Positions 1,227 to 64,000 of a DNA stretch of 64,000 nucleotides are shown one piece after another; the stretch's first letter is position 1, and the number at the start of each line of letters is the position of its first letter. Source of the DNA: Terriglobia bacterium (GTDB lineage Bacteria > Acidobacteriota > Terriglobia > 20CM-2-55-15); assembly GCA_963664115.2 (NCBI GenBank), contig CAXWPJ010000006.1, positions 128,001 to 192,000 of the forward strand. The letters run 5' to 3'. The notes below the pieces were generated by a model that was not told the DNA's origin, made no database searches, and saw only the letters and a program-made list of their open reading frames with translations. The position numbers were made by a program, and so were the translations under genes.

Positions 1227-1463
1227 ATTATCGCCGCTTATCCGTCAATCATCCGCCGTTCGCGACCGGTCCGCTTAGGGAAAAAGTATTGGCGAGTGTA
1301 CTCCGTGAAGCGGTGCAACTGTAGTCCTGACTTCGGCGACGGGCGCGGTCTGGTTCAGGTCAGCAGGGAATGCTGTTCAAGGTAAAGGAACGAGAGGTGT
1401 CGGTAGTGCATCAGTTTGAAATTAGACGTTAAATCCTTTCACGCCTCCGATATGCTTAGAGGC

Positions 1464-1697
1464 ATGGCAAAGAATCCCAAGACGAAGCGACCCGCCGACG
1501 TGGTCGGGAATGCCGTGCGCGTGATGCAGATCGCAACTGGTGATGCTGAAGAAGAAGAGAAGGACCCTGACGCCATTGCCCGTGGCAAGAAGGGCGGTAA
1601 GGTCCGTGCGTCGAAGCTGTCAGCCCGCAAGCGCCGTGAGATCGCCAAGAAGGCGGCAGAGGCGCGATGGGCGAAGGAGCACGCCAAAGATAATTAG
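1464..1697 (+). CDS. Small basic hypothetical protein (GKKGG..RA..L..R.EIAKKAA..RW motif), IS passenger
   Basis: MAKNPKTKRPADVVGNAVRVMQIATG...GKKGGKVRASKLSARKRREIAKKAAEARW; Lys/Arg-rich; ATG at 1464 in frame with ORF 1416. Confidence 0.75.
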   Translation: MAKNPKTKRPADVVGNAVRVMQIATGDAEEEEKDPDAIARGKKGGKVRASKLSARKRREIAKKAAEARWAKEHAKDN

Positions 1698-2800
1698 AGC
1701 GGCCGAATTTGGTCCCGGAGTTCTTTAGATTCCCTGCTGTCGGGCCTGTGCTTTCCGGAAATCGCCGTTACGTTCCTCAACCCGAATATCAGACCCTCCA
1801 CCTCATCCGTCCCGACACAGAGGTCCCGCGCTACGTCTGCATTCTTAACACCACTCTTCTTCAGGTCGCCGAAAACGCTTTCGAGCACCTGTGATGTTTC
1901 GCGTTCGATGCCTTCCGGCTCCCACGATCTACCGTGCTTGTTTAATTCAATGCAGATGCCGCGATAGTAGTAGTCGGTTATCAGCCCTAGTGTGTGGAGA
2001 CGGTGGGCTAGAAGAGAGACCGATACCTTCCAAATCTTCTTTTTTGAGGCGAGCGTCGAAACTGTTGGAGCACGCAGACGCCCAACGTTCGCCAATGCGC
2101 TCTTCTCTGGAACCAAAAACACTCCCGCGAATGTCTGGGCCTCTCTTTCAAAGGGTTGGCCTACCTGCTTGCGGTGGTGGTGGCGCAGCACGAGATGGCC
2201 CAGTTCATGAGCGGCATCAGTGCGGGAGTGCTCTGGAGTCTTGATGGTATTCAGGAACACCATCGGCACATCATCTGCCCAGAGCGAGAAGGCATCGACG
2301 TTCCTGGTCCTTTCGATCAGGGAAAACACCCGGACGCCTTTCGCTTCCAGAAGGCGAACCATATTACCAATTGGCCGCTCACCAATCCCCCAATACTGTC
2401 GCAGGACCGTCGCCGCGACAGGGGGCTTGTACATGGACAGGTCCGGGATATCTGGCTCAGGAAGGTGGTACTTCGCGTCGATCCACTTGTTGAGTTCCCA
2501 CGCAATCCCAGCTACTGAAAATGCCGAAGCCTTCTCTGCGGCAGACATCGTGCTGAGCGCACGGAATGAAGCGGATCCAAGTTTTGCGAGGTCTCCACGA
2601 TAGAAGAACGAAACTGGAAAACGTAGCACTTCGGAAAGCGACACGATCTCGCCTTCGGTGGGCTCGACCTCTCCGGTGATGAATCGGTGGAGCCGTTCGC
2701 GGCTTATTGCGGACTGCTTCGCCAGAGAAACCTTCGTGAGTCCGCGACGCATTCGCGCCAACTCCATCCGGTCCGGATTGAAGATGGTGTCAGTTGCCAC
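1694..2800 (-). CDS. XRE-family HTH fused to ImmA/IrrE (M78) zinc metallopeptidase; RmrA-like antitoxin candidate
   Basis: N-terminal HTH (ARMRRGLTKVSLAKQSAISRERLHRFITG), C-terminal AHELGH (HExxH) plus EREAQTFAGVFLVP. Confidence 0.9.
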   Translation of the reverse strand: MATDTIFNPDRMELARMRRGLTKVSLAKQSAISRERLHRFITGEVEPTEGEIVSLSEVLRFPVSFFYRGDLAKLGSASFRALSTMSAAEKASAFSVAGIAWELNKWIDAKYHLPEPDIPDLSMYKPPVAATVLRQYWGIGERPIGNMVRLLEAKGVRVFSLIERTRNVDAFSLWADDVPMVFLNTIKTPEHSRTDAAHELGHLVLRHHHRKQVGQPFEREAQTFAGVFLVPEKSALANVGRLRAPTVSTLASKKKIWKVSVSLLAHRLHTLGLITDYYYRGICIELNKHGRSWEPEGIERETSQVLESVFGDLKKSGVKNADVARDLCVGTDEVEGLIFGLRNVTAISGKHRPDSRESKELRDQIRPL

Positions 2801-3476
2801 GGCGACGAACTTCGACTATCGGCTCGACTGGCTCGTCTTCGGGTCTGGGCATCACTTCAGGACTTCCCGGAATGCGCCCGAGTATCAGCCGCTCTGACCA
2901 CGCGGTTATCTTTCCTGCTTCATCAATCTTCGTCGGATGCGAAAGTTCGGACCGGAGTTCACCGTCAACGAGGCAGTGGAGGAGAAACCACGTCAACTGG
3001 TATTTGTCCTGCCCATCGTCATCTGGGGCAAACACTTCTGCGTTGGTTTGTTCGGCGGAGTTGACGAATTCCAAGGCGGCTTGTCGATTACGGTAAACGA
3101 CGCGCCGAGTGACCAACCCCTTTCCATGTCTTGTCGTTGGCTGACGCGCCACGCTGGCGGTTCCCGTCCACTCGTCGCCGCTTGCGACAACGATAGCCAT
3201 CCTGCCGTCAGGAGCTACCAGCGTCTCGAAGTTTTTGGTCGATTCCCGAATCCAGCCGAGCGGTAGCCCGAGTTCTCGGAGGCGGCACGTCGATTCACCG
3301 TACATGACGCTGCCACGATAGGTTGCCGGATGATTCTCTGTCGTTCGTGCCCGGTCCGCCATCCCGGCCTCAAGCGCCGAGAGCAATAACTCGCCGCTAA
3401 GGGTTGACTGCAATTCGCGGAGCCGCTGCTCCACCTGTATCGGTTCCGAAATGATGATCCTTTCTATCGAACTCAC
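2790..3476 (-). CDS. Hypothetical protein coupled to the XRE-peptidase gene (putative toxin/effector)
   Basis: 228-aa ORF with SD-like AGGGGG, overlaps downstream gene start by 11 bp. Confidence 0.75.
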   Translation of the reverse strand: MSSIERIIISEPIQVEQRLRELQSTLSGELLLSALEAGMADRARTTENHPATYRGSVMYGESTCRLRELGLPLGWIRESTKNFETLVAPDGRMAIVVASGDEWTGTASVARQPTTRHGKGLVTRRVVYRNRQAALEFVNSAEQTNAEVFAPDDDGQDKYQLTWFLLHCLVDGELRSELSHPTKIDEAGKITAWSERLILGRIPGSPEVMPRPEDEPVEPIVEVRRRGN

Positions 3477-3502
3477 TTAAACCCCCTTAGTTCGGGCGGT
3501 GT

Positions 3503-3548
3503 CACATTTTCGGATCTCATTATAGATCGAGAAATGTGCATAGCTCAA
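3503..3548 (-). promoter_or_regulatory. Sigma70-like promoter for the cargo operon overlapped by an inverted repeat (likely operator)
   Basis: Minus strand TTGAGC-18-TATAAT; imperfect palindrome CACATTTTCGGATCT-cattat-AGATCGAGAAATGTG centred on the -10. Confidence 0.6.
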
Positions 3549-3595
3549 GCTCTAAACTGAGATATCCTTTGTTTTCATTAAATTGAATGAAACCA

Positions 3596-3624
3596 TTGAC
3601 AATGCTTATAGGTTTAAGCATAAT
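3596..3624 (+). promoter_or_regulatory. Transposase promoter with palindromic spacer
   Basis: TTGACA-17 bp-CATAAT; palindrome ATGCTTA-taggtt-TAAGCAT (3602-3621); ATG 7 nt after the -10, so probably leaderless. Confidence 0.7.
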
Positions 3625-3631
3625 AGTCAGT

Positions 3632-4516
3632 ATGAATAAGCTAGACACCAACGCCCGCGCTCAAATCCTTCACTTACTGTGCGAAGGAAACTCCATGCGT
3701 TCGGTCTCCAGGATCGCAAACGTGTCGTTCAATACCGTTAATAAGATCCTGATAGACTCGGGTCGCTCTTGCGCTACGTTCCATGATGAAAGAGTGCAGA
3801 ACGTAAAAGCAAGACGGGTCCAGTGCGATGAAATTTGGAGCTTCACCTACGCCAAACAGAAGAACGTCGGTACGGCTAAAAAGGCCCCTGACGGGGCTGG
3901 TGATACGTGGACGTGGACGGCGCTGGACAGCGACAGCAAGCTGATCGTGTCATGGCTGGTAGGTGGACGAGACACCGAATATGCCGCGATGTTCATGGAC
4001 GATGTTAAGAACCGTCTCGCCGGTCGCGTCCAGTTGACCACAGACGGACTTAAAGCATACCTGGTGGCAGTTGAAGGCGCTTTCGGTGCGGATGTCGATT
4101 TCGCACAACTTGTGAAGCTCTACGGCGAACCGAAGACCGCCAGTCCGGAACGCAAGTACAGCCCTTCAGAATGCACGGGTACACGATGTTACGCGCGGGA
4201 GGGACGCCCAGACCCGAAGCACATTTCAACGTCTCACGTCGAACGCCAAAATTTGACAATGCGGATGCACATGCGGCGGTTTACTCGCCTGACCAACGGA
4301 TTCTCGAAGAAGTTTGAGAATCACATGTGGATGGTTGCCTTGTACGCGGTCTATTACAACTTCCTGAAGATACATAAGACCCTGCGAGTGACGCCAGCGA
4401 TGGAAGCAGGTTTGACGGATCGAGTTTGGACGTTTGAGGATATTGTTGGGCTGATCGACGCGAACGCCCCGAAGCCGGGATCACGCGGACCATACAAGAA
4501 GCGGATTTCAAACTGA
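3632..4516 (+). CDS. IS1-family DDE transposase
   Basis: N-terminal HTH (LLCEGNSMRSVSRI), QCDEIWSF, LTTDGLKAY, VERQNLTMRMHMRRFTRLTNGFSKK; stop codon lies in the right TIR. Confidence 0.92.
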   Translation: MNKLDTNARAQILHLLCEGNSMRSVSRIANVSFNTVNKILIDSGRSCATFHDERVQNVKARRVQCDEIWSFTYAKQKNVGTAKKAPDGAGDTWTWTALDSDSKLIVSWLVGGRDTEYAAMFMDDVKNRLAGRVQLTTDGLKAYLVAVEGAFGADVDFAQLVKLYGEPKTASPERKYSPSECTGTRCYAREGRPDPKHISTSHVERQNLTMRMHMRRFTRLTNGFSKKFENHMWMVALYAVYYNFLKIHKTLRVTPAMEAGLTDRVWTFEDIVGLIDANAPKPGSRGPYKKRISN

Positions 4517-4556
4517 TGCACTACCGAGGTGTCGGGTCATTGCGGTCAGGAGACGA

Positions 4557-48855: not shown

Positions 48856-49198
48856 AACCGAAAGGTTCGCGATTCGAAGAGAGCGTTTCGAATTCGTGAA
48901 CGTCGAGTGGCTGAGTTGGACCTGTCCACTGTTTCAGGGCGCATGGCCTGGGACAGTGGACCTCACCGACTGAGCCGATAGCCCAGCCAGATTCCGGCGA
49001 TTCCGCCGACGAACGACAACCCGACTCCCGACATCGACAGCCCGCTTCCGCCCCAGAGCGCAGGCAGGTAACCCCCGAGGGCCGATCCCACAAAGAATCC
49101 ACCCCAGATGAACTTTTTAGTCATGTGCTGGGCCCACTGTGTAATGCGGTCTTCCCGGAATCAACACCTTCTCAATTTCTAATCGCGTATTGTGTTAG

Positions 49199-49494
49199 CA
49201 GCCCGTGGCAGAAGTCTCGAGGACCGCGCGCAGGGGTCTTCGAGTTGCGGGCGCGAAGTGAGGAGCGGGCACCGAGGTCTGAAACCGAGGCCGCTGGCGC
49301 CGTCTTTACATCGTGACCGACGAGAGACAAAGCCTGCGGCCCGAACCCCCCTGCGCCCACAGGGTTACGGCGAAACGGGGCTGTCTTCGTTGTCGCCGAC
49401 TCCTCCCAATGAATGAGCATTGTCTCGTCGTCGTCTCCTAAAATCCAGCCCCGTTTGGCCGTAACGCGGCCCTCGAGACTTCTGCCACGGGCTG
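49199..49494. mobile_element. MITE, non-coding, 296 bp
   Basis: Perfect 24-bp TIR CAGCCCGTGGCAGAAGTCTCGAGG, flanked by TTAG/CTAG; two long internal hairpins. Confidence 0.85.
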
Positions 49495-49498
49495 CTAG

Positions 49499-50966
49499 TA
49501 CTACTGTGTTACAAACGAAGCGGCCCACAGAGCGGACAGCACGGGAGTTGCTGGATGAGGAATCGTGCGATGCGAATGCGAAGTGAGGCGATCGAGCACG
49601 GATTATGTCGCTCGGGCCGGATCCGGGGCTCCGCGGGGTTTGAAGTGTCTGGGGAGTTGGGGGACGGATAGTCCAACATGCGTGACAAATGCAGAGGGGG
49701 AAAAACGGTTCCGCTCAGCGACCAGGAACCCATAAGCTGCGATGCATAAAGCGCCATGGTGGTGAAATCCACGCCAGCCGCGACCTTCGTAATGGCCCAG
49801 TCCGAGTTCCTGCTTGAGTTCCTGATAGTCGCGTTCGATGATCCAGCGATGCTTGGCCCGATAGACCAGATTTGAAAGAGAGGTATTGGTCCCGAGACTG
49901 GAGAGCCAGTATTGAACCGGTTCGGATTCGGTCTTGGGCCATTCGATCAACAACCATTCTTCCGGATGGGGCTCGTGGCGCTCATGATCGCGATGAGCCG
50001 TGCGAATCCGGATTGCGGCGAAGCGGGAGCGCAACGTGTCGGCCGTGCCTTCGCGCCAGGACACGTTCTTCCATTTTTGTCGAGGCAAGGAGAGAGCCAG
50101 TTGTTTGACCGAAACAGGACGATGCTTCTTGTGACGCCTCAACAGCGTCGGCGGGCGCCCCTGGCCGGTCCACGACTTCTTGGGCAGGGGTTGCCGACCG
50201 GGCTCCCAGACCGAGGTCGAGGATTGGATGCCAACCACATAAGGCAGCCCCAGTGCGGTAATCGTCGCGCGAAACTTACTGTCGTTGCCGTAGGCGGCAT
50301 CGGCCAACACGGGAGCCGTCCCCACACCGTCCGCAATCGCCTGTCGGATTTGGTCCAGAGCAATCGCAATCTTGGTCTGGAATCCAACCGCGTCGGGGAC
50401 ACCGGTCTTCTTGCGGCGTTCGGCATCGTTCGCCCAAAGCTTCGGCAGGTACAGCCGCCATGCCACGGGCAGACTCGATTTCGCCGTCGCTACCGACAGA
50501 CTGACCGCCACCCGGCAGTTCTCCTGCTTGCCGACCTGTCCACAGTATTGCCGGGCCACACCTACCGAGTGGGTCCCCTTCTTCACGAATCCGGTGTCGT
50601 CGACAATCCACGATTCAATCGGACCGTGCGCTTCCATCCCCGGCAACGTCGACTCCCGGACTTGTCGCAATATGGCCGCATCCTCCCAGGGGGCATCCGC
50701 CACCAGGTGATGCAGCGACTGATGCATTTGGCGCACATTATCCGGAGCCAATCGCGCCGCCATCGGTTCCACGCTCTTGCGCTTGATTGGCAGCAGCAAT
50801 CCCTTGCAGTACCACTTCAGCGGTTCATGACGGTCGGCGTGTCCGGCGGCCGACGCCAGGCGTTCCATATAGGCCGCAAAACGTTCTTCCTGAGTGCCTG
50901 GCGCCTTCGTTTTGGCGCTCATGTGCAAATGCTAACACAAGCTCGTCATTTTGTAACACAGTAGTA
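49499..50966 (-). mobile_element. IS701 family insertion sequence, copy 1
   Basis: TIR TACTACTGTGTTACAAA; CTAG on both sides. Confidence 0.95.
49603..50922 (-). CDS. IS701 family transposase
   Basis: RKSVEPMA, IVDDTGFVKKG.HSVGVARQYCG..GK.ENC, LADAAYG, RWIIERDYQELKQELGL.HYEGR.W.GFHHH. Confidence 0.95.
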   Translation of the reverse strand: MSAKTKAPGTQEERFAAYMERLASAAGHADRHEPLKWYCKGLLLPIKRKSVEPMAARLAPDNVRQMHQSLHHLVADAPWEDAAILRQVRESTLPGMEAHGPIESWIVDDTGFVKKGTHSVGVARQYCGQVGKQENCRVAVSLSVATAKSSLPVAWRLYLPKLWANDAERRKKTGVPDAVGFQTKIAIALDQIRQAIADGVGTAPVLADAAYGNDSKFRATITALGLPYVVGIQSSTSVWEPGRQPLPKKSWTGQGRPPTLLRRHKKHRPVSVKQLALSLPRQKWKNVSWREGTADTLRSRFAAIRIRTAHRDHERHEPHPEEWLLIEWPKTESEPVQYWLSSLGTNTSLSNLVYRAKHRWIIERDYQELKQELGLGHYEGRGWRGFHHHGALCIAAYGFLVAERNRFSPSAFVTHVGLSVPQLPRHFKPRGAPDPARAT

Positions 50967-54238: not shown

Positions 54239-55706
54239 TACTACTGTGTTACAAACGAAGCGGCCCACAGAGCGGACAGCACGGGAGTTGCTGGATGAGG
54301 AATCGTGCGATGCGAATGCGAAGTGAGGCGATCGAGCACGGATTATGTCGCTCGGGCCGGATCCGGGGCTCCGCGGGGTTTGAAGTGTCTGGGGAGTTGG
54401 GGGACGGATAGTCCAACATGCGTGACAAATGCAGAGGGGGAAAAACGGTTCCGCTCAGCGACCAGGAACCCATAAGCTGCGATGCATAAAGCGCCATGGT
54501 GGTGAAATCCACGCCAGCCGCGACCTTCGTAATGGCCCAGTCCGAGTTCCTGCTTGAGTTCCTGATAGTCGCGTTCGATGATCCAGCGATGCTTGGCCCG
54601 ATAGACCAGATTTGAAAGAGAGGTATTGGTCCCGAGACTGGAGAGCCAGTATTGAACCGGTTCGGATTCGGTCTTGGGCCATTCGATCAACAACCATTCT
54701 TCCGGATGGGGCTCGTGGCGCTCATGATCGCGATGAGCCGTGCGAATCCGGATTGCGGCGAAGCGGGAGCGCAACGTGTCGGCCGTGCCTTCGCGCCAGG
54801 ACACGTTCTTCCATTTTTGTCGAGGCAAGGAGAGAGCCAGTTGTTTGACCGAAACAGGACGATGCTTCTTGTGACGCCTCAACAGCGTCGGCGGGCGCCC
54901 CTGGCCGGTCCACGACTTCTTGGGCAGGGGTTGCCGACCGGGCTCCCAGACCGAGGTCGAGGATTGGATGCCAACCACATAAGGCAGCCCCAGTGCGGTA
55001 ATCGTCGCGCGAAACTTACTGTCGTTGCCGTAGGCGGCATCGGCCAACACGGGAGCCGTCCCCACACCGTCCGCAATCGCCTGTCGGATTTGGTCCAGAG
55101 CAATCGCGATTTTGGTCTGGAATCCAACCGCGTCGGGGACACCGGTCTTCTTGCGGCGTTCGGCATCGTTCGCCCAAAGCTTCGGCAGGTACAGCCGCCA
55201 TGCCACGGGCAGACTCGATTTCGCCGTCGCTACCGACAGACTGACCGCCACCCGGCAGTTCTCCTGCTTGCCGACCTGTCCACAGTATTGCCGGGCCACA
55301 CCTACCGAGTGGGTCCCCTTCTTCACGAATCCGGTGTCGTCGACAATCCACGATTCAATCGGACCGTGCGCTTCCATCCCCGGCAACGTCGACTCCCGGA
55401 CTTGTCGCAATATGGCCGCATCCTCCCAGGGGGCATCCGCCACCAGGTGATGCAACGACTGATGCATTCGGCGCACATTATCCGGAGCCAATCGCGCCGC
55501 CATCGGCTCCACGCTCTTGCGCTTGATTGGCAGCAGCAATCCCTTGCAGTACCACTTCAGCGGTTCATGACGGTCGGCGTGTCCGGCGGCCGACGCCAGG
55601 CGTTCCATATAGGCCGCAAAACGTTCTTCCTGAGTGCCTGGCGCCTTCGTTTTGGCGCTCATGTGCCAATGCTAACACAAGCTCGTCATTTTGTAACACA
55701 GTAGTA
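54239..55706 (-). mobile_element. IS701 family insertion sequence, copy 2
   Basis: Same TIRs and CTAG flanks; about 6 substitutions versus copy 1. Confidence 0.95.
54343..55662 (-). CDS. IS701 family transposase
   Basis: Same as copy 1 except Q>R in NVRQM. Confidence 0.95.
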   Translation of the reverse strand: MSAKTKAPGTQEERFAAYMERLASAAGHADRHEPLKWYCKGLLLPIKRKSVEPMAARLAPDNVRRMHQSLHHLVADAPWEDAAILRQVRESTLPGMEAHGPIESWIVDDTGFVKKGTHSVGVARQYCGQVGKQENCRVAVSLSVATAKSSLPVAWRLYLPKLWANDAERRKKTGVPDAVGFQTKIAIALDQIRQAIADGVGTAPVLADAAYGNDSKFRATITALGLPYVVGIQSSTSVWEPGRQPLPKKSWTGQGRPPTLLRRHKKHRPVSVKQLALSLPRQKWKNVSWREGTADTLRSRFAAIRIRTAHRDHERHEPHPEEWLLIEWPKTESEPVQYWLSSLGTNTSLSNLVYRAKHRWIIERDYQELKQELGLGHYEGRGWRGFHHHGALCIAAYGFLVAERNRFSPSAFVTHVGLSVPQLPRHFKPRGAPDPARAT

Positions 55707-55764
55707 CTAGCAGCCCGTGGCTAAAGTCGGCCGAGCGATCATCGTGCTCGGTTAGATAATTTTC

Positions 55765-55953
55765 TTACACTGACGCCTCGGCTCCGCCTCTTTACTATGA
55801 AAGCTGTCCACCCGCACCGGGGGGCCGGTGCGGGTCCTCCAGTGCCTGCTTCAAAATGTCGTTCAGCCCTTTAGGCCTCGCAGTCAGGACGATTGCGAGG
55901 GTCGGCGGTCGTTCAGACAGGATGTCTGAATGAACGATCGAGCGAAATCTTCT
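55765..55953 (+). repeat. Structured dispersed element, copy C (candidate ncRNA)
   Basis: TTACACTGACGCCTCGGCT...TGTCCACCCGCA...TGCGGGT...CCTCGCAG...GCGAGGGTCG...TGAACGATCGAGCGAAATCTTCT is the diverged reverse complement of the + strand at 63730-63930. Confidence 0.75.
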
Positions 55954-56013
55954 CCCAGCAGCGAACCGTTCGCATCACCTAGCACAGCCGGATTCGACTT
56001 TGACCTCCGACTC

Positions 56014-56457
56014 CTAGGACCGCAGATCTTCAGTTCGCTTCAGGGTTTCTTTGAGATCACCGGCTGAGCGGCAGAGGACGAAGATGGTGTCGTCCCCCGC
56101 AATCGTGCCGACGATTTCCCTCCAGCCTGCGTTGTCCACAGCGTCGGCAACGGTGGAGGCGCTGCCGGTCGTGGTCCTGATCACGAGCAGCGGCGCTACG
56201 CTGTCGATTGCGACCACATAATCTCTTAAGACGCGACGCAGGGTTTGCTTTGAAGTGCGGCGGGCCTCGGGCCGCCCCACGACATAAGCGCTGCCCGCCT
56301 TGACCAGCCCGAGTTCCTTAATATCCCGTGACAAAGTGGCCTGGGAGACCTCGATGCCGTTTCGGTGCAGCGCGTTGGCCAGAACGTGTTGGCTTCCGAT
56401 GCGATTTTCCCGAACCAGTTCTAAAATAGAGTTTTGGCGGTCTCGTTTGCTCCTCAT
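56014..56457 (-). CDS. argR: Arginine repressor
   Basis: VSQATLSRDIKELGLVK, VGTIAGDDTIFV. Confidence 0.96.
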   Translation of the reverse strand: MRSKRDRQNSILELVRENRIGSQHVLANALHRNGIEVSQATLSRDIKELGLVKAGSAYVVGRPEARRTSKQTLRRVLRDYVVAIDSVAPLLVIRTTTGSASTVADAVDNAGWREIVGTIAGDDTIFVLCRSAGDLKETLKRTEDLRS

Positions 56458-56485
56458 CGTTGCGACAAATTATATAGCAAAAGGC

Positions 56486-56545
56486 TTGACTTCATAGAAG
56501 TCCAAAGTGCATAATTATTCATTCGTATAGGATGAATATTCATTT
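56486..56545 (+). promoter_or_regulatory. arg operon promoter with ARG box
   Basis: TTGACT-18-CATAAT; AGTGCATAATTATTCATT (56506-56523) matches the ARG-box palindrome; second palindrome ATGAATATTCAT follows. Confidence 0.75.
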
Positions 56546-56564
56546 TGGTGTGTGAAGCAGGACT

Positions 56565-57485
56565 ATGAAGAGATCTCCGACAACTGCAGCGTGGCCCGTT
56601 CTGGATAAATATCGCGATACGTGTTTCGTAGTGAAGCTCGGCGGCCAGCCGCTGACCGACCCGGAGGCACTCAACAGTCTCGCCTTCGATCTATCCATTC
56701 TCCGTCAGGCTGGGGTCCGTGTCGTCGTCGTTCATGGCGGCGGTCCGCAGTTGTCGGAGATGTCTGAGCGGCTTGGCCTGGAAACTAAGAAAATCGACGG
56801 TCGCCGGATTACGGATAACAACACCCTGAAGCTGGCGAAAATGGTTTTTGCCGGCGAGATCTCGACGGATATCGTAGCCGCTCTCCGCCGCCACGGAGTG
56901 TCCGGTATCGGGTTGAGTGGTGTTGATGGTGAGTTGGTCGACGCCGAGCGTCGGGCTCCGGTTTGGCGGACTAATCCGGAAACAGGCGAGGAAGAATTGA
57001 TCGACTTCGATCATGTGGGTGATATCCGTCAGGTGAACCCGTTCGTATTGAACGTATTGCTCGACCAGGGTTTTGTCCCTGTCGTTGCTTCTCTTGGATC
57101 GGATAAAGCCGGTTCCGTCCTCAACATCAATGCCGATACCGTTGCCGCTGAAATTGCGATAGCCATCGGGGCAGAGAAACTGGTTGTGATGTCTGATGTT
57201 CCCGGATTGTTACGCGACGTCGGCGATCGCAATAGCCGGATTCCAGATATTACAGTCGATGCTGTCCGAGAACTCAAACAGACCGGCAGCGTTTCGGGTG
57301 GGATGCTCCCGAAGCTTGAGAGCATCATCCGCACTATCGAATCCGGTACGGAGCAGATCCACATCCTGGATGGGCATACGCCGCACGCCCTTCTGGAGGA
57401 ACTCAGCGGACCCGGTACCCACGGTACTTTCATTTCCTCAGCCAGGCACGCCGGGGGTGTCTCGATCGGGCACGAGCCGGCCTGA
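56565..57485 (+). CDS. argB: Acetylglutamate kinase
   Basis: VVKLGG, VVHGGGPQ, GRRITD, NINADTVA, SGGMLPKL. Confidence 0.95.
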   Translation: MKRSPTTAAWPVLDKYRDTCFVVKLGGQPLTDPEALNSLAFDLSILRQAGVRVVVVHGGGPQLSEMSERLGLETKKIDGRRITDNNTLKLAKMVFAGEISTDIVAALRRHGVSGIGLSGVDGELVDAERRAPVWRTNPETGEEELIDFDHVGDIRQVNPFVLNVLLDQGFVPVVASLGSDKAGSVLNINADTVAAEIAIAIGAEKLVVMSDVPGLLRDVGDRNSRIPDITVDAVRELKQTGSVSGGMLPKLESIIRTIESGTEQIHILDGHTPHALLEELSGPGTHGTFISSARHAGGVSIGHEPA

Positions 57486-58912
57486 TGCGCGCCGCTCGGT
57501 TTGCGGCGCCTATGAATCCTCACTTTCGCGCCCTCAACGCCAGTATTGGTTTCGATAAACGTTTGCTCCACGAGGACATCGACGGGAGCCGTGCGTGGGT
57601 TCGTGCGCTCTCCGGTTCCGGGCTTCTCTCCGATGAGGAGGCACAAAAAATCGATGAAGGCCTGGAAGGAGTGCGGAAGGGGATTGAGTCAGGCGAACTT
57701 CCCTTGTCGGAAGAACTCGAAGACATTCACATGAATGTGGAGGCCTTGCTTGCCGATGCGGTGGGTCCTGTGGCTGGCAAACTTCACACGGGCCGCAGTC
57801 GCAACGAGCAGGTAGCGACGGATTTGAGGCTCTACCTGCGTGATCGCTCTCGGCGGATCGCAGCCGATCTGTTGTCCCTCGTTACCACGCTCGCTGAGAC
57901 GGCCGAGCGGAACTACGACGTAGTCATACCGGCCTATACACATTTGCAGCGGGCGCAGCCGGTCCTGTTCGCTCACCATTTCCTTGCGTACGCGGAAATG
58001 TTTCTCAGAGATCACGAGCGGCTGCTCTGGGCAGCGAATCAAGCCGATGCCTGTGTGCTTGGAGCGGGTGCCTGCGTCGGCAATCAGTTTGGCATCGACC
58101 GGGAATACTTACGTGAAAACCTCGGTTTTTCACGTCTCACGCATAACTCTCTCGACGCTGTAAGCGACCGGGATTTTGTATGTGACTTTCTGCACGCGGC
58201 GGTCATGTTTCTGGTCCATGTGTCCCGCTTGAGCGAGGACATCATCCTCTGGTCGTCCAGCGAATTCGGGTTCGTCGAACTGGATGAATCCGTGTCTTCG
58301 GGCAGTTCGATGCTTCCGCAAAAGAAGAATCCGGATGCGTGTGAGCTGGGGCGCGCGAAGTGCGGGCGTGTGCTTGGACATCTGGTGGCTTCGGTTTCGA
58401 TGTTGAAAGGTCTGCCGTTGTCCTACAACAAGGATCTCCAGGAGGACAAGGAAGGTACGTTCGACGCGGTGGATACCATAGCGGCGCTGATACCGGTCTT
58501 CGAGGTCGTCGTGGGCAAGTTAAGCGTCAATCGCGAACGGGCGGGGTCCGCCCTTCGAGGAGGATATCTGGAGGCCATTTCGGTTGCCGACTACTTCACA
58601 CGCAAGGGAATGCCTTTTCGTGAAGCGCACTCGGTTGCGGGCAAACTTGTCCGCCTGGCCGAAGAGCGTGTCGTGTCGTTATCGGAGCTGTCGATCGAGG
58701 ACTATCGGGAGCTTGCCGGTGACATGGCCGACAGCGTAGACGAAGACCTGTTCGAAGCCATCACGCTGGAGGCTGCTTTGGAGAGCAAGGACGTCGTCGG
58801 TGGTACCGCGCCCAGACGTGTGGCCGAGGAAATTGATCGCGTTAAGAAGCTTGTCGAACAGCTTCGGAAACATCAGATCCCGGGTAATCGCGAGGTGACT
58901 CTTGGCGGATAA
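57485..58912 (+). CDS. argH: Argininosuccinate lyase
   Basis: EDIHMNVE, LHTGRSRNEQVATD, SSGSSMLPQKKNPD. Confidence 0.96.
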   Translation: MRAARFAAPMNPHFRALNASIGFDKRLLHEDIDGSRAWVRALSGSGLLSDEEAQKIDEGLEGVRKGIESGELPLSEELEDIHMNVEALLADAVGPVAGKLHTGRSRNEQVATDLRLYLRDRSRRIAADLLSLVTTLAETAERNYDVVIPAYTHLQRAQPVLFAHHFLAYAEMFLRDHERLLWAANQADACVLGAGACVGNQFGIDREYLRENLGFSRLTHNSLDAVSDRDFVCDFLHAAVMFLVHVSRLSEDIILWSSSEFGFVELDESVSSGSSMLPQKKNPDACELGRAKCGRVLGHLVASVSMLKGLPLSYNKDLQEDKEGTFDAVDTIAALIPVFEVVVGKLSVNRERAGSALRGGYLEAISVADYFTRKGMPFREAHSVAGKLVRLAEERVVSLSELSIEDYRELAGDMADSVDEDLFEAITLEAALESKDVVGGTAPRRVAEEIDRVKKLVEQLRKHQIPGNREVTLGG

Positions 58913-60110
58913 GAAGAAAGTCGTCCTGGCGTATTCAGGAGGGTTGGATACTTCGTATTGTGTCCTGCATCTCCAGGAACAGGGATTCGAGGTGATTACG
59001 CTCACCGTCGATACCGGTGGTTTTTCCGCGTCCGAGCTCAGTGAAATGGAGGCGCGAGCCAAGCAGCTCGGGGCGGCGGAACATCACACTGTCGATGCGC
59101 GGGCACAGGTGTTCGACGAGTACGTCAGCTACCAGATCAAAGGAAATATTCTGCGGGGACAGGTATACCCCCTGGCGGTTGCGGCCGAGCGTGTCGTGCA
59201 GGCGTCGGTGGTAGCCGACTATGCCATCCGCGTGGGCGCCGCCGCCGTTGCCCACGGGTCCACAGGCGCTGGTAACGATCAGGTTCGTTTCGACGTCGTC
59301 TTCCAGGTGCTTTGTCCGGCACTGGAAATCATTTCGCCGGTCCGTGACGAAACGCTGACCCGGGAGGAAGAGTATTCGAAACTGGCCGAACGAGGAGTCA
59401 AGATTCCTGATTCGACACGGAAGTATTCGATCAACACAGGCCTTTGGGGTGGGACGATCGGGGGCGGGGAAACACACGACTCTTGGGCAGAGATTCCGGA
59501 CCATGTATACGATCTGGTTCTCGACAGTGAGCAGGAGATTGAATCCGAGCACCTTACGATTGAATTTGAAAAAGGTATTCCAACAAAAATCGACGACACC
59601 GCATATGCCGGTCCGGAACTGATTTCTGTGCTTGGGAACAAGTGCCGCGGCCATCGTGTGGGTCTGGATGTTCATATCGGTGACACGGTCCTGGGGATCA
59701 AGGGACGTATCGCATTTGAGGCCGGCGCCGCTATCGTGCTGATTAAAGCGCACAGGGAACTGGAGAAGATCACAACCACGTCGTGGCAGCGTTTCTGGAA
59801 AGACCAGATGGCAGAGTTCTACGGAAAGCTGTTGCACGAGGGCCTGGCCTTTGAGCCGGCCCTGCGGGATATCGAAGCGCTGATCGACAGCTCCCAGGAG
59901 CGTGTGTCCGGTGAGGCGCGCGTCCGGCTGGACCGCGGCCATTTCACTGTAACCGGTGTCCGCAGCCCGCACAGCATGATGGACTCCGGCAGCGGGGTGT
60001 ACGGTGAAATGCCGAAGCTCTGGGACGGTTCCGACACGCGTGGGTACGGCAAAATTGTTGCGGTGCCGGCTCGACTTCATCGAAGCGCCGCCGGTAAAGG
60101 ATCCGAGTAG
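58902..60110 (+). CDS. argG: Argininosuccinate synthase
   Basis: VVLAYSGGLDTS, AHGSTGAGNDQVRF, GIKGRIAFEA. Confidence 0.96.
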   Translation: MADKKKVVLAYSGGLDTSYCVLHLQEQGFEVITLTVDTGGFSASELSEMEARAKQLGAAEHHTVDARAQVFDEYVSYQIKGNILRGQVYPLAVAAERVVQASVVADYAIRVGAAAVAHGSTGAGNDQVRFDVVFQVLCPALEIISPVRDETLTREEEYSKLAERGVKIPDSTRKYSINTGLWGGTIGGGETHDSWAEIPDHVYDLVLDSEQEIESEHLTIEFEKGIPTKIDDTAYAGPELISVLGNKCRGHRVGLDVHIGDTVLGIKGRIAFEAGAAIVLIKAHRELEKITTTSWQRFWKDQMAEFYGKLLHEGLAFEPALRDIEALIDSSQERVSGEARVRLDRGHFTVTGVRSPHSMMDSGSGVYGEMPKLWDGSDTRGYGKIVAVPARLHRSAAGKGSE

Positions 60111-60139
60111 TTTTTTGTAATTCGATACAGTAGAGAAAG

Positions 60140-61195
60140 ATGGCCGAGACTATTCAGTTAGATAAAATCGCATCAGTGGTGAGTCGCGTCGGCTTGCCCC
60201 GAACTGTATCGATTACTTCCAAGCTCGAGTCGACTTCCGGAAACGCGATCGTAGTTCGCGTTTTGCCCGACGGTAGGGCCAGACAAGAACTCGAACTGTC
60301 GGACGGCCGAATGATCCGAATGTTCGGCGATGATGTTATCGTCGGCGCCCTTGGACGCCGCCGGGCGCTGAGGGGACACGTGGGCGACGTCCCGTCGAGC
60401 GTGAGAGTTGGAGACCGGTTGGCCATATTGAACCGCGGGGGCGTGGTGGGTACTTCGGCCTCCTCCGATCCGGAGCCGGAAGGCCCGCTGGCATGCGAAG
60501 TTCTGGGAATGCCCATCATCGACGGACGGATTCCCAACATTCGCGACAATGCCATCAAGAACGTATCAAGTCTTGTCGGGATGGCTATCCCTCCGATCGT
60601 GATCGTATCCGGCACCTCGATGGCGAGCGGGAAAACGAGTTTGCTGACGGAACTGGTTCAGGTTTTGTCTAAAAAAGGCATTCGTGTGGCCGCGGGCAAG
60701 CTGACCGGAGTTGCATGTTTGAGAGATCTGCTGTCAATGGAAGATAACGGCGCTGTCGAGACCGCTTCGTTCCTGGATGCGGGTTACCCATCGACGGCGG
60801 GTCTGGAAGCGGCGGTCCTGATCGATACCGCGAAGGCCGTGATCGCCGAGCTGGCGGCGGGCAACCCCGAGGTCATGCTTCTGGAATTGGGCGATGGTAT
60901 CGTGGGCGATTACGGTGTGATCGATGTCCTGGTTGATCCTGAGATTCGTGATGTCGTTCATGTGCACGCATTTTGTGCGAATGACCTGGCCGGTGCGTGG
61001 GGAGGTCTTCGATTTGCCCAGGAGCATGGACTCGATATCGATCTGTTTGCGGGGCCTGCGACAGACAACCTTGTGGGTGTCGAATACCTGGAGTCGGAGT
61101 TCAACCGTCCCGCGATCAACGCTTGTAAACATCCCGCCCGAATGGCGGAAGTCGTTTTGACTCTCCTGAAGCTGAAGAAGCGCAAGGTTTCCTGA
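60140..61195 (+). CDS. DUF1611-like P-loop NTPase of unknown function
   Basis: GTSMASGKTS Walker A; KLTGVACLRD, FLDAGYPST, LELGDG. Confidence 0.75.
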   Translation: MAETIQLDKIASVVSRVGLPRTVSITSKLESTSGNAIVVRVLPDGRARQELELSDGRMIRMFGDDVIVGALGRRRALRGHVGDVPSSVRVGDRLAILNRGGVVGTSASSDPEPEGPLACEVLGMPIIDGRIPNIRDNAIKNVSSLVGMAIPPIVIVSGTSMASGKTSLLTELVQVLSKKGIRVAAGKLTGVACLRDLLSMEDNGAVETASFLDAGYPSTAGLEAAVLIDTAKAVIAELAAGNPEVMLLELGDGIVGDYGVIDVLVDPEIRDVVHVHAFCANDLAGAWGGLRFAQEHGLDIDLFAGPATDNLVGVEYLESEFNRPAINACKHPARMAEVVLTLLKLKKRKVS

Positions 61196-61236
61196 TTTGT
61201 CGGTTCTGGTGTCTTCGGTCTAACGTCCACGAGCTG

Positions 61237-61342
61237 AGATTTCGCTCGGTCGTTGATGCGGTTCTTTAAACAAACCCGCAGCGTTCCTCGCTGCGGGTGG
61301 ACAACGAGGCGGTCGCCGAGGCGTCAGAGTAAATAGGATGAT
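61237..61342 (-). repeat. Structured dispersed element, copy A (internally deleted)
   Basis: Shares AGATTTCGCTCGGTCGTT and the ~85-nt block ending GGCGTCAGAGTAA(A)TAGGATGAT with copy B. Confidence 0.85.
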
Positions 61343-61425
61343 CGGATGGGAAGAGAACAGCGTTGTGAAGCACCGATCTTCTCACCGACGGCTCTAACGA
61401 CCCGTCAACCGTTCCAAGAAACAAC

Positions 61426-62472
61426 ATGGCTAAGGCTAGGGACAATATCGGTGTCGGCGTTCTCGGTGCCTCAGGATACATAGGTGCGGAGTTGATGCGC
61501 TATGTTGCGCTGCATCCTCGTCTGTCGCTTCGATGGGCAACGGCCAACCGGGACGCGGGTCGGCCCGTTGGCGACGTGTTTCCGAACCTCCAGGGCTTCG
61601 TGAATCAAAGTTTTCTTAAGGCGGAAGAGGTCGAGACCCGGTTTGGCGAAGTCGCAGCCGTATTCCTGGCTCTCCCGCACCATGAATCCCAGGAAGTCTT
61701 ACCTTCACTGGTAGATGCTTATCCGGAAACGGTTTTCATCGATCTTGCAGGAGATTTCCGGACTCCCGATGCTGAAGGTTATCGCCGCTATTACGGACGT
61801 GATCATCAGGCTCCTGAATTGTTGGAGCGTTTTGTCTATGGCTTTACCGAGGTTCAGCGCAAAGCGCTGGCGGGTGCGCGCCTGATCGCCAATCCGGGTT
61901 GTTTCGCAACTGGAATGCTTCTGCTCTTGTATCCCCTGGCCCAAAGCGGTCTCTTGTCGGAACCCGTGTGTCTGACCGGTATCACGGGATCTTCCGGTTC
62001 CGGGCGTCAAGCTATCACGACGACCCATCACCCGGAACGTGCGCAGAACGTCCGGGCTTACAGGTCGCTGGTGCACCAGCATCTACTGGAAGTCGAGTGG
62101 TTTCTCAACAGAGGTTCCGGACCGGACATCCGACTCCAGTTCGTGTCACAGTCGGCCCCGATCGTGCGTGGAATATTCACAACACTGTTTCTGCCAGCTC
62201 AGGAAGCCGCTGCGGTACGCGAGGTGTATGAGGGGTTTTACGGCGCCGAGGCCCTCATCGACGTCGTTGAGGGGTCGCCCGATCTAAGGTCCGTACAGAC
62301 GACGCCCCGGTCTGTCGTCGGAGTCGATGGCGCAGCCGGGAGAGGTGCAGTTGTCTTCTCGACGATCGACAACCTGGGCAAGGGTGCGGCCGGCCAGGCT
62401 ATACAGAATCTCAACTGCGCACTCGGGCTTGGCGAAACGGAGGGTTTGGATTGGCCAGGAGGTTTTGTTTGA
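61426..62472 (+). CDS. argC: N-acetyl-gamma-glutamyl-phosphate reductase
   Basis: GASGYIGAEL, IANPGCFAT, IDNLGKGAAGQAIQNLN. Confidence 0.96.
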   Translation: MAKARDNIGVGVLGASGYIGAELMRYVALHPRLSLRWATANRDAGRPVGDVFPNLQGFVNQSFLKAEEVETRFGEVAAVFLALPHHESQEVLPSLVDAYPETVFIDLAGDFRTPDAEGYRRYYGRDHQAPELLERFVYGFTEVQRKALAGARLIANPGCFATGMLLLLYPLAQSGLLSEPVCLTGITGSSGSGRQAITTTHHPERAQNVRAYRSLVHQHLLEVEWFLNRGSGPDIRLQFVSQSAPIVRGIFTTLFLPAQEAAAVREVYEGFYGAEALIDVVEGSPDLRSVQTTPRSVVGVDGAAGRGAVVFSTIDNLGKGAAGQAIQNLNCALGLGETEGLDWPGGFV

Positions 62473-63647
62473 AGAACGCGCAGTCCATCCCCCAATTGGA
62501 AGACGCCTATACCTTGCCGGTCTATAGCAACATACGCTTGCCCTTGACGATCGTGAAAGGCAAGGGCAACTGCGTCTACGATGACGATGGAAACGAATAT
62601 CTCGATTTGTATGGCGGACACGCGGTCTGCAGCATCGGTCACTCGCATCCAGACTGGGTTCACGACATGCAGCGACAGATTGAGACGCTGACGTTCTATT
62701 CCAACGCAGTGTACAACCCGGTGCGTGCTGAGGCTGCGGAGGTGCTGGTCACACACAGCTACCCGTCCATGCACTCGGTCTTTTTCTGTAATTCGGGTGC
62801 CGAGGCTAACGAGACGGCGATGAAGATTGCACGGAAGGCAACCGGCCGCGGGCTAGTCGTGTCAATGCAGCGTGGGTTCCACGGCAGAACGATCGGGGCA
62901 CTGAGCGCGACGGGCTTCCCGGCGATGCGTGAGCGTTTTCCGGAAAATATCGAAGCCTGGAGTCGGTTCTTCGAGTTTGGCTCGGCGGACATTTTCGATA
63001 TGGAAGATCCCGACGAGGTCTCAGCGATTATTGTAGAGCCCATTCAGAGTGTGGCCGGAGTGTACATGGCGGAGCCGGACTACTACCGGCGATTGAGAGA
63101 GTTCTCGAGCGACCATGGGATCTGCCTCATTTTCGATGAGGTGCAGACTGGATCGGGACGAACAGGCGCGTGGTATGCAGGCACGCACTGGGGCGTGGAG
63201 CCAGACATCGTCACCACAGCCAAAGGTGTTGCAGGTGGCATGCCGGCCGGCGTTGTCATCGCAAATGAGTTTGTGGCCGGGACCGTCGAGCCCGGTGATC
63301 AGGCGACTACGTTCGGAGGCAATCCACTGGCGGCGGCGGCGATATGTGCGACGTACCGGGTAATCGAGAAAGGCAAACTTGTCGATCGGGTCCGGGACCA
63401 TTCGTCCCAGGTCATTTCGCGACTGCTGGAGCTCGAGGCTGTCCGTGAGGTCCGGGGCTTGGGATATTTGCTCGGTGTCGAGTGTTCCGTGTCTGCGAAA
63501 GAGCTGTCGGGCCGTTTGCTCAAGGAGCGGATTCTGGTGGGCACGTGCGCCCAGGGGGAAACCATCCGCTTGCTGCCTCCGTTGACCATGAACATGGATG
63601 AATGGGAACACTTTCTGGAAGTATTTGGGAAGGTGGTTAAGGGTTGA
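62469..63647 (+). CDS. argD: Acetylornithine aminotransferase
   Basis: TTG start after AGGAGG; FFCNSGAEANE, FHGRT, FDEVQTG, AKGVAGG, TTFGGNPLA. Confidence 0.9.
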   Translation: MKNAQSIPQLEDAYTLPVYSNIRLPLTIVKGKGNCVYDDDGNEYLDLYGGHAVCSIGHSHPDWVHDMQRQIETLTFYSNAVYNPVRAEAAEVLVTHSYPSMHSVFFCNSGAEANETAMKIARKATGRGLVVSMQRGFHGRTIGALSATGFPAMRERFPENIEAWSRFFEFGSADIFDMEDPDEVSAIIVEPIQSVAGVYMAEPDYYRRLREFSSDHGICLIFDEVQTGSGRTGAWYAGTHWGVEPDIVTTAKGVAGGMPAGVVIANEFVAGTVEPGDQATTFGGNPLAAAAICATYRVIEKGKLVDRVRDHSSQVISRLLELEAVREVRGLGYLLGVECSVSAKELSGRLLKERILVGTCAQGETIRLLPPLTMNMDEWEHFLEVFGKVVKG

Positions 63648-63729
63648 GAGGGAGTTAGTAGTTGTGAGTACCGATTCTCAGCTCATGACCTTGCCCTCTA
63701 ACTGGTGCCCTTGGGTGAAACATCGCGAC

Positions 63730-63939
63730 AGAAGATTTCGCTCGGTCGTTCAACCGGCCGACCATCTCTGTCGCGATTCACGCGTGGGCCGAACGAGGGG
63801 CGACCCTCACCATCATCCTGATGGCGAGGCTTATTGGGGACAAAGAAACGTTGATGCAGTTCCCCAACAAAACCCGCAGCGTTCCTCGCTGCGAATGGAC
63901 AACGAGGCGGTAGCCGAGGCGTCAGAGTAATAGGATGAT
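63730..63939 (-). repeat. Structured dispersed element, copy B (longest)
   Basis: Homologous to copies A and C; several nested hairpins. Confidence 0.85.
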
Positions 63940-64000
63940 TTGTTCGGATCCGAACGAAACTTTGAATCAACGAACTTCTAATCCAACTATCTAGCAACTT

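Follow-up and report, generated by a model that had tools for sequence, protein, structure and literature searches.

The question raised by this locus is whether three structured, noncoding repeats lying behind arg genes of a Terriglobia bacterium represent a new RNA family or something more familiar. The window, a 64,000-nucleotide stretch of contig CAXWPJ010000006.1 (positions 128,001 to 192,000), belongs to a genome of 4.9 Mb (G000), which was compared with, among others, four congeners (G001–G004) and a member of another genus (G022). The initial annotation had described copies C, A and B of a three-copy element, taken to be either a structured noncoding RNA (ncRNA) or a non-autonomous single-stranded DNA element. 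All three are present in the window where it placed them, 42–83 nt past the stop codons of argR, the gene at 60140–61195 and argD, each on the strand opposite its gene. [quoted passage not shown] The reading we consider probable is that of a gene-less repeat of 260–310 bp, with decayed ends matching those of the insertion sequence (IS) family IS630, inserted at TA by a borrowed IS630 transposase and with its core exchanged between copies afterwards.

Rather than three copies, the genome holds 59 loci after merging, of which 44 are close to full length, and a profile built from the copies gave 79 matches at E<=1 in G000 with 0 in the reversed genome. All 4 congeners carry the element, and a genome from another genus has the 5′ part, which makes 6 of 41 genomes counting G000; a motif search recovered the core motif from 7 of 35 family genomes. 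Across all species genomes, a scan returned 36 stretches, 34 of them from records titled Acidobacteria or Terriglobia; a single full copy on a 3.8-kb contig from a record titled Gammaproteobacteria (L323:367-580) may reflect horizontal transfer or mis-binning, and the other non-acidobacterial motif match (L328) was a chance match in coding DNA. The boundaries first drawn proved too narrow, the full unit being ~260–310 bp (extents in Table 1, that of copy C approximate), and no open reading frame (ORF) of >=90 aa is confined to a copy of these intergenic elements.

The nature of the element became apparent from its ends. A decayed inverted repeat lies in the flanks, 40–70 bp outside the flagged core, and near-perfect terminal inverted repeats are found in copies from G002 and G001, including core-bearing G002 copies of 280–284 bp. 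Both ends were recognisable, at a threshold of 15/22, in 21 of 52 copies from relatives versus 3 of 43 copies in G000. The end consensus has ~2700 matching metagenome stretches; paired ends were present at 38 of the 128 metagenome loci read, and the core at 1 of the 128. The 18 long paired-end elements (13 distinct, 1129–1445 bp) all encode an IS630-like transposase, two of which pass NF033545 with 270 and 275 bits (cut-off 100), and none of the 20 short ones (88–431 bp) has a transposase. Two relatives within the class (G091 and G273) have the same ends on elements of 1162 bp as well as on short ones. Many short elements with IS630-type or IS1-like ends and differing REP-like hairpin interiors were also seen among metagenome loci L145–L257, L304–L309, L384 and L385.

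Insertion itself can be read from comparison of sites. When 62 loci from relatives were mapped onto G000, 13 gave clean empty sites and 11 G002 loci lay at filled sites, the others being unlinked or unclear. In the cleanest filled/empty pairs the insert measures 262 or 290 bp and is accompanied by a TA duplication; at L085 the target is duplicated around the 262-bp insert, and L069 settles that TA is the duplicated sequence. Judged from sequence, the element is an IS630-type MITE: gene-less, with IS630-matching ends, empty sites and a TA duplication. Most insertions would have been made by an IS630 transposase that was not found in these genomes. The resident IS630s inspected carry other ends, and no unit-length element with these ends occurs in G000; an autonomous parent was considered behind an end-like match at C10:293625, where the ORF reads by eye as a SAM synthetase and no transposase is present. 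Insertion at stop codons accounts for 5 of 38 recognisable ends.

The suggestion of a non-autonomous mobile element therefore stands, but not the class of transposition proposed with it, since the signature is of DDE type (inverted repeats, with TA or 8-bp duplications). The 5′ TTAC, likened initially to HUH (IS200/IS605) targets, lies within the element, ~70 bp in from its left end, and is not constant among copies. Non-autonomous elements derived from IS200/IS605 have no terminal inverted repeats, make no target duplication and insert beside a fixed tetranucleotide. By that definition, which draws in part on the guide concept in PMC8266576, the present family differs in having both inverted repeats and target duplications.

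Hairpins P3, P2 and P1 and their compensatory changes were borne out. In a covariation test covering five genomes and 33 copies, 13 of the 30 pairs changed on both sides and 97.1% of cells pair, a result reached by 0 of 500 shuffles, although the shuffle control keeps column make-up and not kinship and hence overstates the support. In the helix proposed to close a multibranch fold between the 5′ and 3′ ends, by contrast, 0 of 5 pairs changed on both sides, 500 of 500 shuffles reached the score, and one base is shared with P1. Selection on a single strand, proposed from G-U mismatches, fared little better: among 121 sequences there were 50 G.T versus 29 A.C cells (p=0.024), a weak excess, and 17 of the G.T cells came from one column, without which the count is 33 versus 29. 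Distinct wobble column types numbered 20 G.T versus 17 A.C, with P3 reversed (8 versus 15). A clean copy folds alike on both strands (RNA -80.9 and -82.8, DNA -46.9 and -47.0 kcal/mol), and whole-copy folding z-scores are modest, from -1.8 to -2.4. Position 1 of P3 is C-G in 77 of 87 copies. The hairpins are real; one functional strand or a multibranch fold is unsupported.

What remains distinctive is the behaviour of the core. Identity to consensus in G000 is 53–57% for the ends, 59–69% for the linkers and 89–99% for motifs and stems, and single-stranded motifs (the P2–P1 joint and the 5′ motif) are conserved as well as the stems. Of the 39 G000 copies, 18 carry one particular P2 allele and 20 one particular P3 allele; among the 34 G002 copies the numbers are 0 and 2, respectively. 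In 5 of 7 orthologous pairs at least one P0, P3 or P1 allele differs or the G000-specific P2 allele is present, and the right ends of such pairs are more alike than those of permuted pairs (0.54 vs 0.41, 0/2000). At one orthologous site the element is inverted between the two species. Because the two species differ in their alleles even where sites are orthologous, the data suggest, as the simplest reading, that hairpins have been overwritten, whole hairpins being exchanged among resident copies after insertion; part of the allele pattern could also result from insertions recurring at hot spots. Exchange of whole hairpins would in turn give compensatory changes without RNA selection, and we infer that these changes arose mainly by whole-hairpin replacement at the DNA level.

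The core is also not bound to one set of ends. IS1-like ends surround 3 G002 and 3 G000 core copies, two of them with 8-bp near-duplications, and single IS1182-like ends, scoring below cut-off, occur beside the core as well, the left end of copy C among them. A parent element with this IS1-like end type, its score likewise below cut-off, is present in the window itself at 1402–4525. In G022 the 5′ module lies in inverted tandem arrays, with no IS630 end at the 4 loci checked. A second, unrelated core of G000 is likewise common to three end types, with one copy at 49196–49497 of the window. That copy is a second MITE, of 302 bp with IS1182-like ends, and its interior is 73–81% identical to interiors with two other end types (L321:1225-1501; L306–L308). 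Core and ends are thus uncoupled, one core being found within the ends of unrelated IS families. No published case of a single core shared by several IS shells was found by a literature search that ran without figures, supplements, subscription journals and ISfinder, and in which PMC11602168, PMC3184786 and PMC10969869 were represented by part of their text.

The exchange, if it occurs, calls for an agent. The most likely one, which we name tentatively, would be a co-occurring RAYT clade acting on single-stranded hairpins as TnpA-REP acts on REPs; otherwise gene conversion could be responsible. Since TnpA-REP is described as cleaving, recombining and rejoining single-stranded REPs (PMC8266576), it is plausible, and the argument is one of plausibility only, that an HUH enzyme may act on the inner core. 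The RAYT-like clade scores above the Pfam Y1_Tnp cut-off and, of the 35 family genomes, occurs in exactly those 7 that have the core motif; co-occurrence in one of these, G049, was predicted beforehand and held. The proteins form one clade (>=54% identity, support 0.947) and would appear to belong with the subclass 2.1-like Y1 proteins, as these are described in PMC6006769. A degenerate core remnant lies ~300 nt behind the RAYT gene of G004 (E=1.7e-4), and a short motif ~125 nt behind a gene of G000. At C10:490039-493317 of G000 the RAYT gene is duplicated around what by eye appears to be a nucleotidyltransferase toxin-antitoxin pair, with a third RAYT fragment downstream and one copy bearing an internal stop. 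A bolder idea, which we regard as rather unlikely, is that the ~200-bp core is itself the replicating unit, a candidate RAYT single-stranded DNA substrate that would be rewritten in place and re-shelled by the ends of active DDE insertion sequences (IS630, IS1-like, IS1182-like).

Several observations weigh against insertion by IS630 followed by exchange of the core, or against its parts. Most of the 18 aligned filled/empty junctions are too diverged to read, and G000–G004 yielded no IS630 whose ends match, with only 10 loci inspected for their ends. No two G000 copies are >90% identical, unlike what a recent MITE burst would leave; transposition in this genus is probably old. The contrast between core and ends is inflated, the copies having been chosen by core profile or motifs (91 of 121 passed the motif filter), and there are remnants in which the core has decayed and the ends are better, among them one in G001 at the argC site. 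The left ends of orthologous pairs, of which 7 were scored, are not significantly more alike than expected (p=0.27). As for the enzyme, the RAYT-like clade falls below the NCBIfam RAYT cut-off (53 vs 80), its co-occurrence with the core amounts to about two independent lineages, kin not being independent, and one full copy occurs in a genome without a RAYT match. The RAYT genes lack intact flanking cores, with nothing clear in G001 or G002, and the gene of G004 and one G000 copy are interrupted. Finally, a second repeat family with 106 pattern matches in G000 could be the RAYT substrate instead. It is a separate paired-end hairpin repeat (e.g. C10:180217-180283), one copy of which is nested in the P1 loop of the present element.

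That second family leads to the chief alternative, which falls short of probable but is a real possibility, namely a plain IS630 MITE whose core is kept as mildly useful hairpins at gene ends (terminators or barriers at mRNA 3′ ends), with alleles spread by gene conversion of RecA type and the RAYT unrelated, possibly serving the other repeat. The latter point is countered by the absence of the 106-match family from G022 and G049, both of which have RAYT and the core motif. The genomic context, by a crude ORF caller, fits the alternative: gaps between convergent genes hold 32 of the 59 loci but make up 240 of the 1073 long intergenic gaps (p=3e-7), and divergent gaps hold 5 of 59. A T-rich tail follows P3 in 24 of 32 G000 copies, and MITE transcripts are described as able to alter mRNA stability (PMC2229807). 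On the other hand, the tail is found in only 6 of 27 G002 copies, and any terminator role of P3 may for this reason be a local co-option. Conservation of single-stranded motifs to the level of the stems, and recurrence of the core in other shells and shell-free, likewise weigh against it. Under our preferred reading, i.e. insertion followed by exchange of the core, copies would persist at gene 3′ ends through low harm there, and some would act as terminators.

The same context bears on the ncRNA family first proposed, an antisense regulator of arg genes, a ribozyme or a guide scaffold, which we now find highly improbable. Covariation in the three hairpins is real, the unpaired motifs are conserved, and G002 has copies A and B at the same arg sites in the same orientation. 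However, the 59 loci are dispersed beside unrelated genes and carry transposon ends and target duplications, the multibranch closure is unsupported, and close relatives differ at the arg sites. Sites A and B are both filled in G002 and both empty in G004 and G022; G001 has a decayed remnant at site A and nothing at site B; and behind argR the G002 copy has the opposite orientation, with no copy in G001, G004 and G022. Because arg sites in relatives are empty, hold a remnant or hold a copy turned around, the arg association is incidental and the family is not arginine-specific. Nor did the rule that copies lie antisense to the gene hold for the family, in which tandem intergenic sites have 14 antisense and 8 sense copies (p=0.29), over half the G000 loci are convergent and the G002 argR copy is reversed. 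No replication-strand bias was seen among 48 loci scored (25 leading, 23 lagging). Rfam gave nothing at gathering level for the window and chance matches alone for three clean copies, and the supposed likeness to a hammerhead dissolved into 6 scattered matches to the core pattern CUGANGA...GAAA, as generally given, on both strands of 121 sequences. No sigma-70-like site was found within 61100–64000. Three metatranscriptomes contain 6–14% of the words of the region, their contigs covering scattered gene pieces and copies 90–95% alike and giving neither strand nor level.

A further RNA-level explanation starts from the loops: of the 102 P2 loops 81 contain GGA, as do 54 of the 55 short P1 loops. 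The copies could act as a dispersed CsrA sponge, read-through from upstream genes presenting 2–3 GGA-loop hairpins per copy that are predicted to bind CsrA. AGGA in loops is described as a hallmark of small RNAs that bind CsrA (PMC1488887), the genome has two csrA genes, and at 40 of 59 loci the strand carrying GGA has the same sense as the upstream gene. We nevertheless hold this to be improbable, as 2–3 sites per copy compare poorly with the 16–21 described for CsrB-type RNAs (PMC1488887), csrA is present in 33 of 35 family genomes and so does not track the element, loop-inverted copies occur (3 of 102 P2 hairpins) without any robust strand asymmetry, and all three window copies place GGA opposite the arg gene strand. 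Of the csrA genes themselves, at C9:34511-34765 and C9:507307-507534, one lies by eye beside fliW- and flgL-like genes and the other stands alone; two copies are typical for the host family.

Comparison with known systems places the element between several of them. Like RUP of Streptococcus pneumoniae and its IS630-Spn1, as described in PMC2229807, it is gene-less and intergenic, has IS630-matching inverted repeats and a TA target, and is a hot spot for IS. It differs from the RUP type as described there, which has one long stem, in being longer (260–310 bp) with several internal hairpins, in having ends less conserved than the interior and no near-identical copies, and in the recurrence of its core within IS1-like ends. 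With REP, BIME and REPIN repeats and TnpA-REP (in the accounts of PMC8266576 and PMC6006769) it shares GC-rich hairpins at the 3′ ends of genes, alleles that are shuffled, inverted tandem arrays (G022) and a low-copy Y1 gene that co-occurs. Unlike them, by the same accounts, it has no GTAG-type foot before the hairpins, in either the alignment or the parsed copies, its Y1 gene lacks intact flanking repeats, and the unit in this genus has DDE-type ends and duplicates its target when it moves. P3, with a 9-bp stem, a 5–6 nt loop and a similar short tag before it, resembles the CGTC palindromes and TIRYT/TIRtrons, although the palindromes, going by their description (PMC3733652), open with A-T and end in a CCA tail while P3 opens with C-G. 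The same paper reports CGTC repeats as having no dedicated transposase. The AGGA/GGA loops in a host that encodes CsrA recall CsrB/RsmZ-type RNAs as presented in PMC1488887, whereas the present element is dispersed and mobile with 2–3 sites per copy.

Within the window the three copies are not alike (Table 1, where sub-part coordinates were read by position ruler and may be off by 1 base). Copy A is missing P2 and the greater part of P1; its orthologue in G002 is full-length and the site in G004 is empty. Copy B has an orthologue in G002; G001 and G004 are empty there. At its left end copy C matches, over 19 of 21 positions, the end of a 1491-bp IS of the same genome with an IS1182-like score below cut-off, and its right side is a fourth end type to which no IS could be matched. 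Near-identical IS701 copies at 49603–50928 and 54343–55662 each sit at a MITE end, and elsewhere in the genome other IS630 and IS1182-like elements also adjoin element ends. The IS1-like element near the start of the window carries passenger ORFs of 368 aa and 228 aa, the larger by eye resembling a helix-turn-helix plus zinc-peptidase protein, and elements with like ends, of 3.1–3.4 kb, lie at C4:64360 and C10:484008. In the arg operon, the label of a DUF1611-like gene for 60140–61195 was not confirmed; this 351-aa gene has no Pfam match and weak P-loop-type NCBIfam matches, and its position is kept in relatives.

Table 1. Repeat copies, their hairpins and neighbouring features in the 64,000-nucleotide window
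Feature	Position	Strand	Remarks
IS1-like element, two passenger ORFs, 8-bp duplication	1402..4525	+	NF033558 59 bits, below cut-off 100
IS701 transposase, inserted at left end of copy C; neighbour, outside the element	54343..55662	-	NF033540 419 bits, cut-off 150
Copy C, whole element	55708..55982	+	chimeric ends: left IS1182-like, right another type not matched to an IS
Copy C, conserved 5′ motif (P0 region)	55770..55790	+	long-range pairing unsupported
Copy C, hairpin P3	55811..55834	+	
Copy C, hairpin P2, GGA loop	55876..55900	+	
Copy C, hairpin P1, short-insert allele, GGA loop	55909..55937	+	
Host arg cluster	56014..63647		argR (-); argB, argH, argG, 351-aa gene, argC, argD (+)
Copy A, internally deleted element	61207..61396	-	decayed IS630-type inverted repeats 61207-61229 (13/23), 61374-61396 (16/23)
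Copy A, hairpin P3, then T-rich tail	61274..61298	-	terminator-like on minus strand
Copy B, full element	63703..63993	-	decayed IS630-type inverted repeats 63703-63725 (14/23), 63971-63993 (16/23)
Copy B, hairpin P1, long-insert allele	63746..63796	-	
Copy B, hairpin P2, GGA loop	63805..63829	-	
Copy B, hairpin P3 with T-rich tail	63872..63896	-	

As a MITE the element is ordinary; what is less ordinary is the uncoupling of its core from its ends. For the discovery of RNA motifs it holds a caution, in that hairpin replacement at the DNA level within a repeat family can give strong covariation. If a RAYT does act on the core, this would bear on the upkeep of REP-like repeats that have no flanking transposase, such as those described in PMC3733652, and on what the subclass-2.1-like Y1 proteins of PMC6006769 cut. 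And were the core itself the replicating unit, it would be a parasite of parasites served by two enzymes, and a substrate for a group of Y1 proteins without found REP-like targets.

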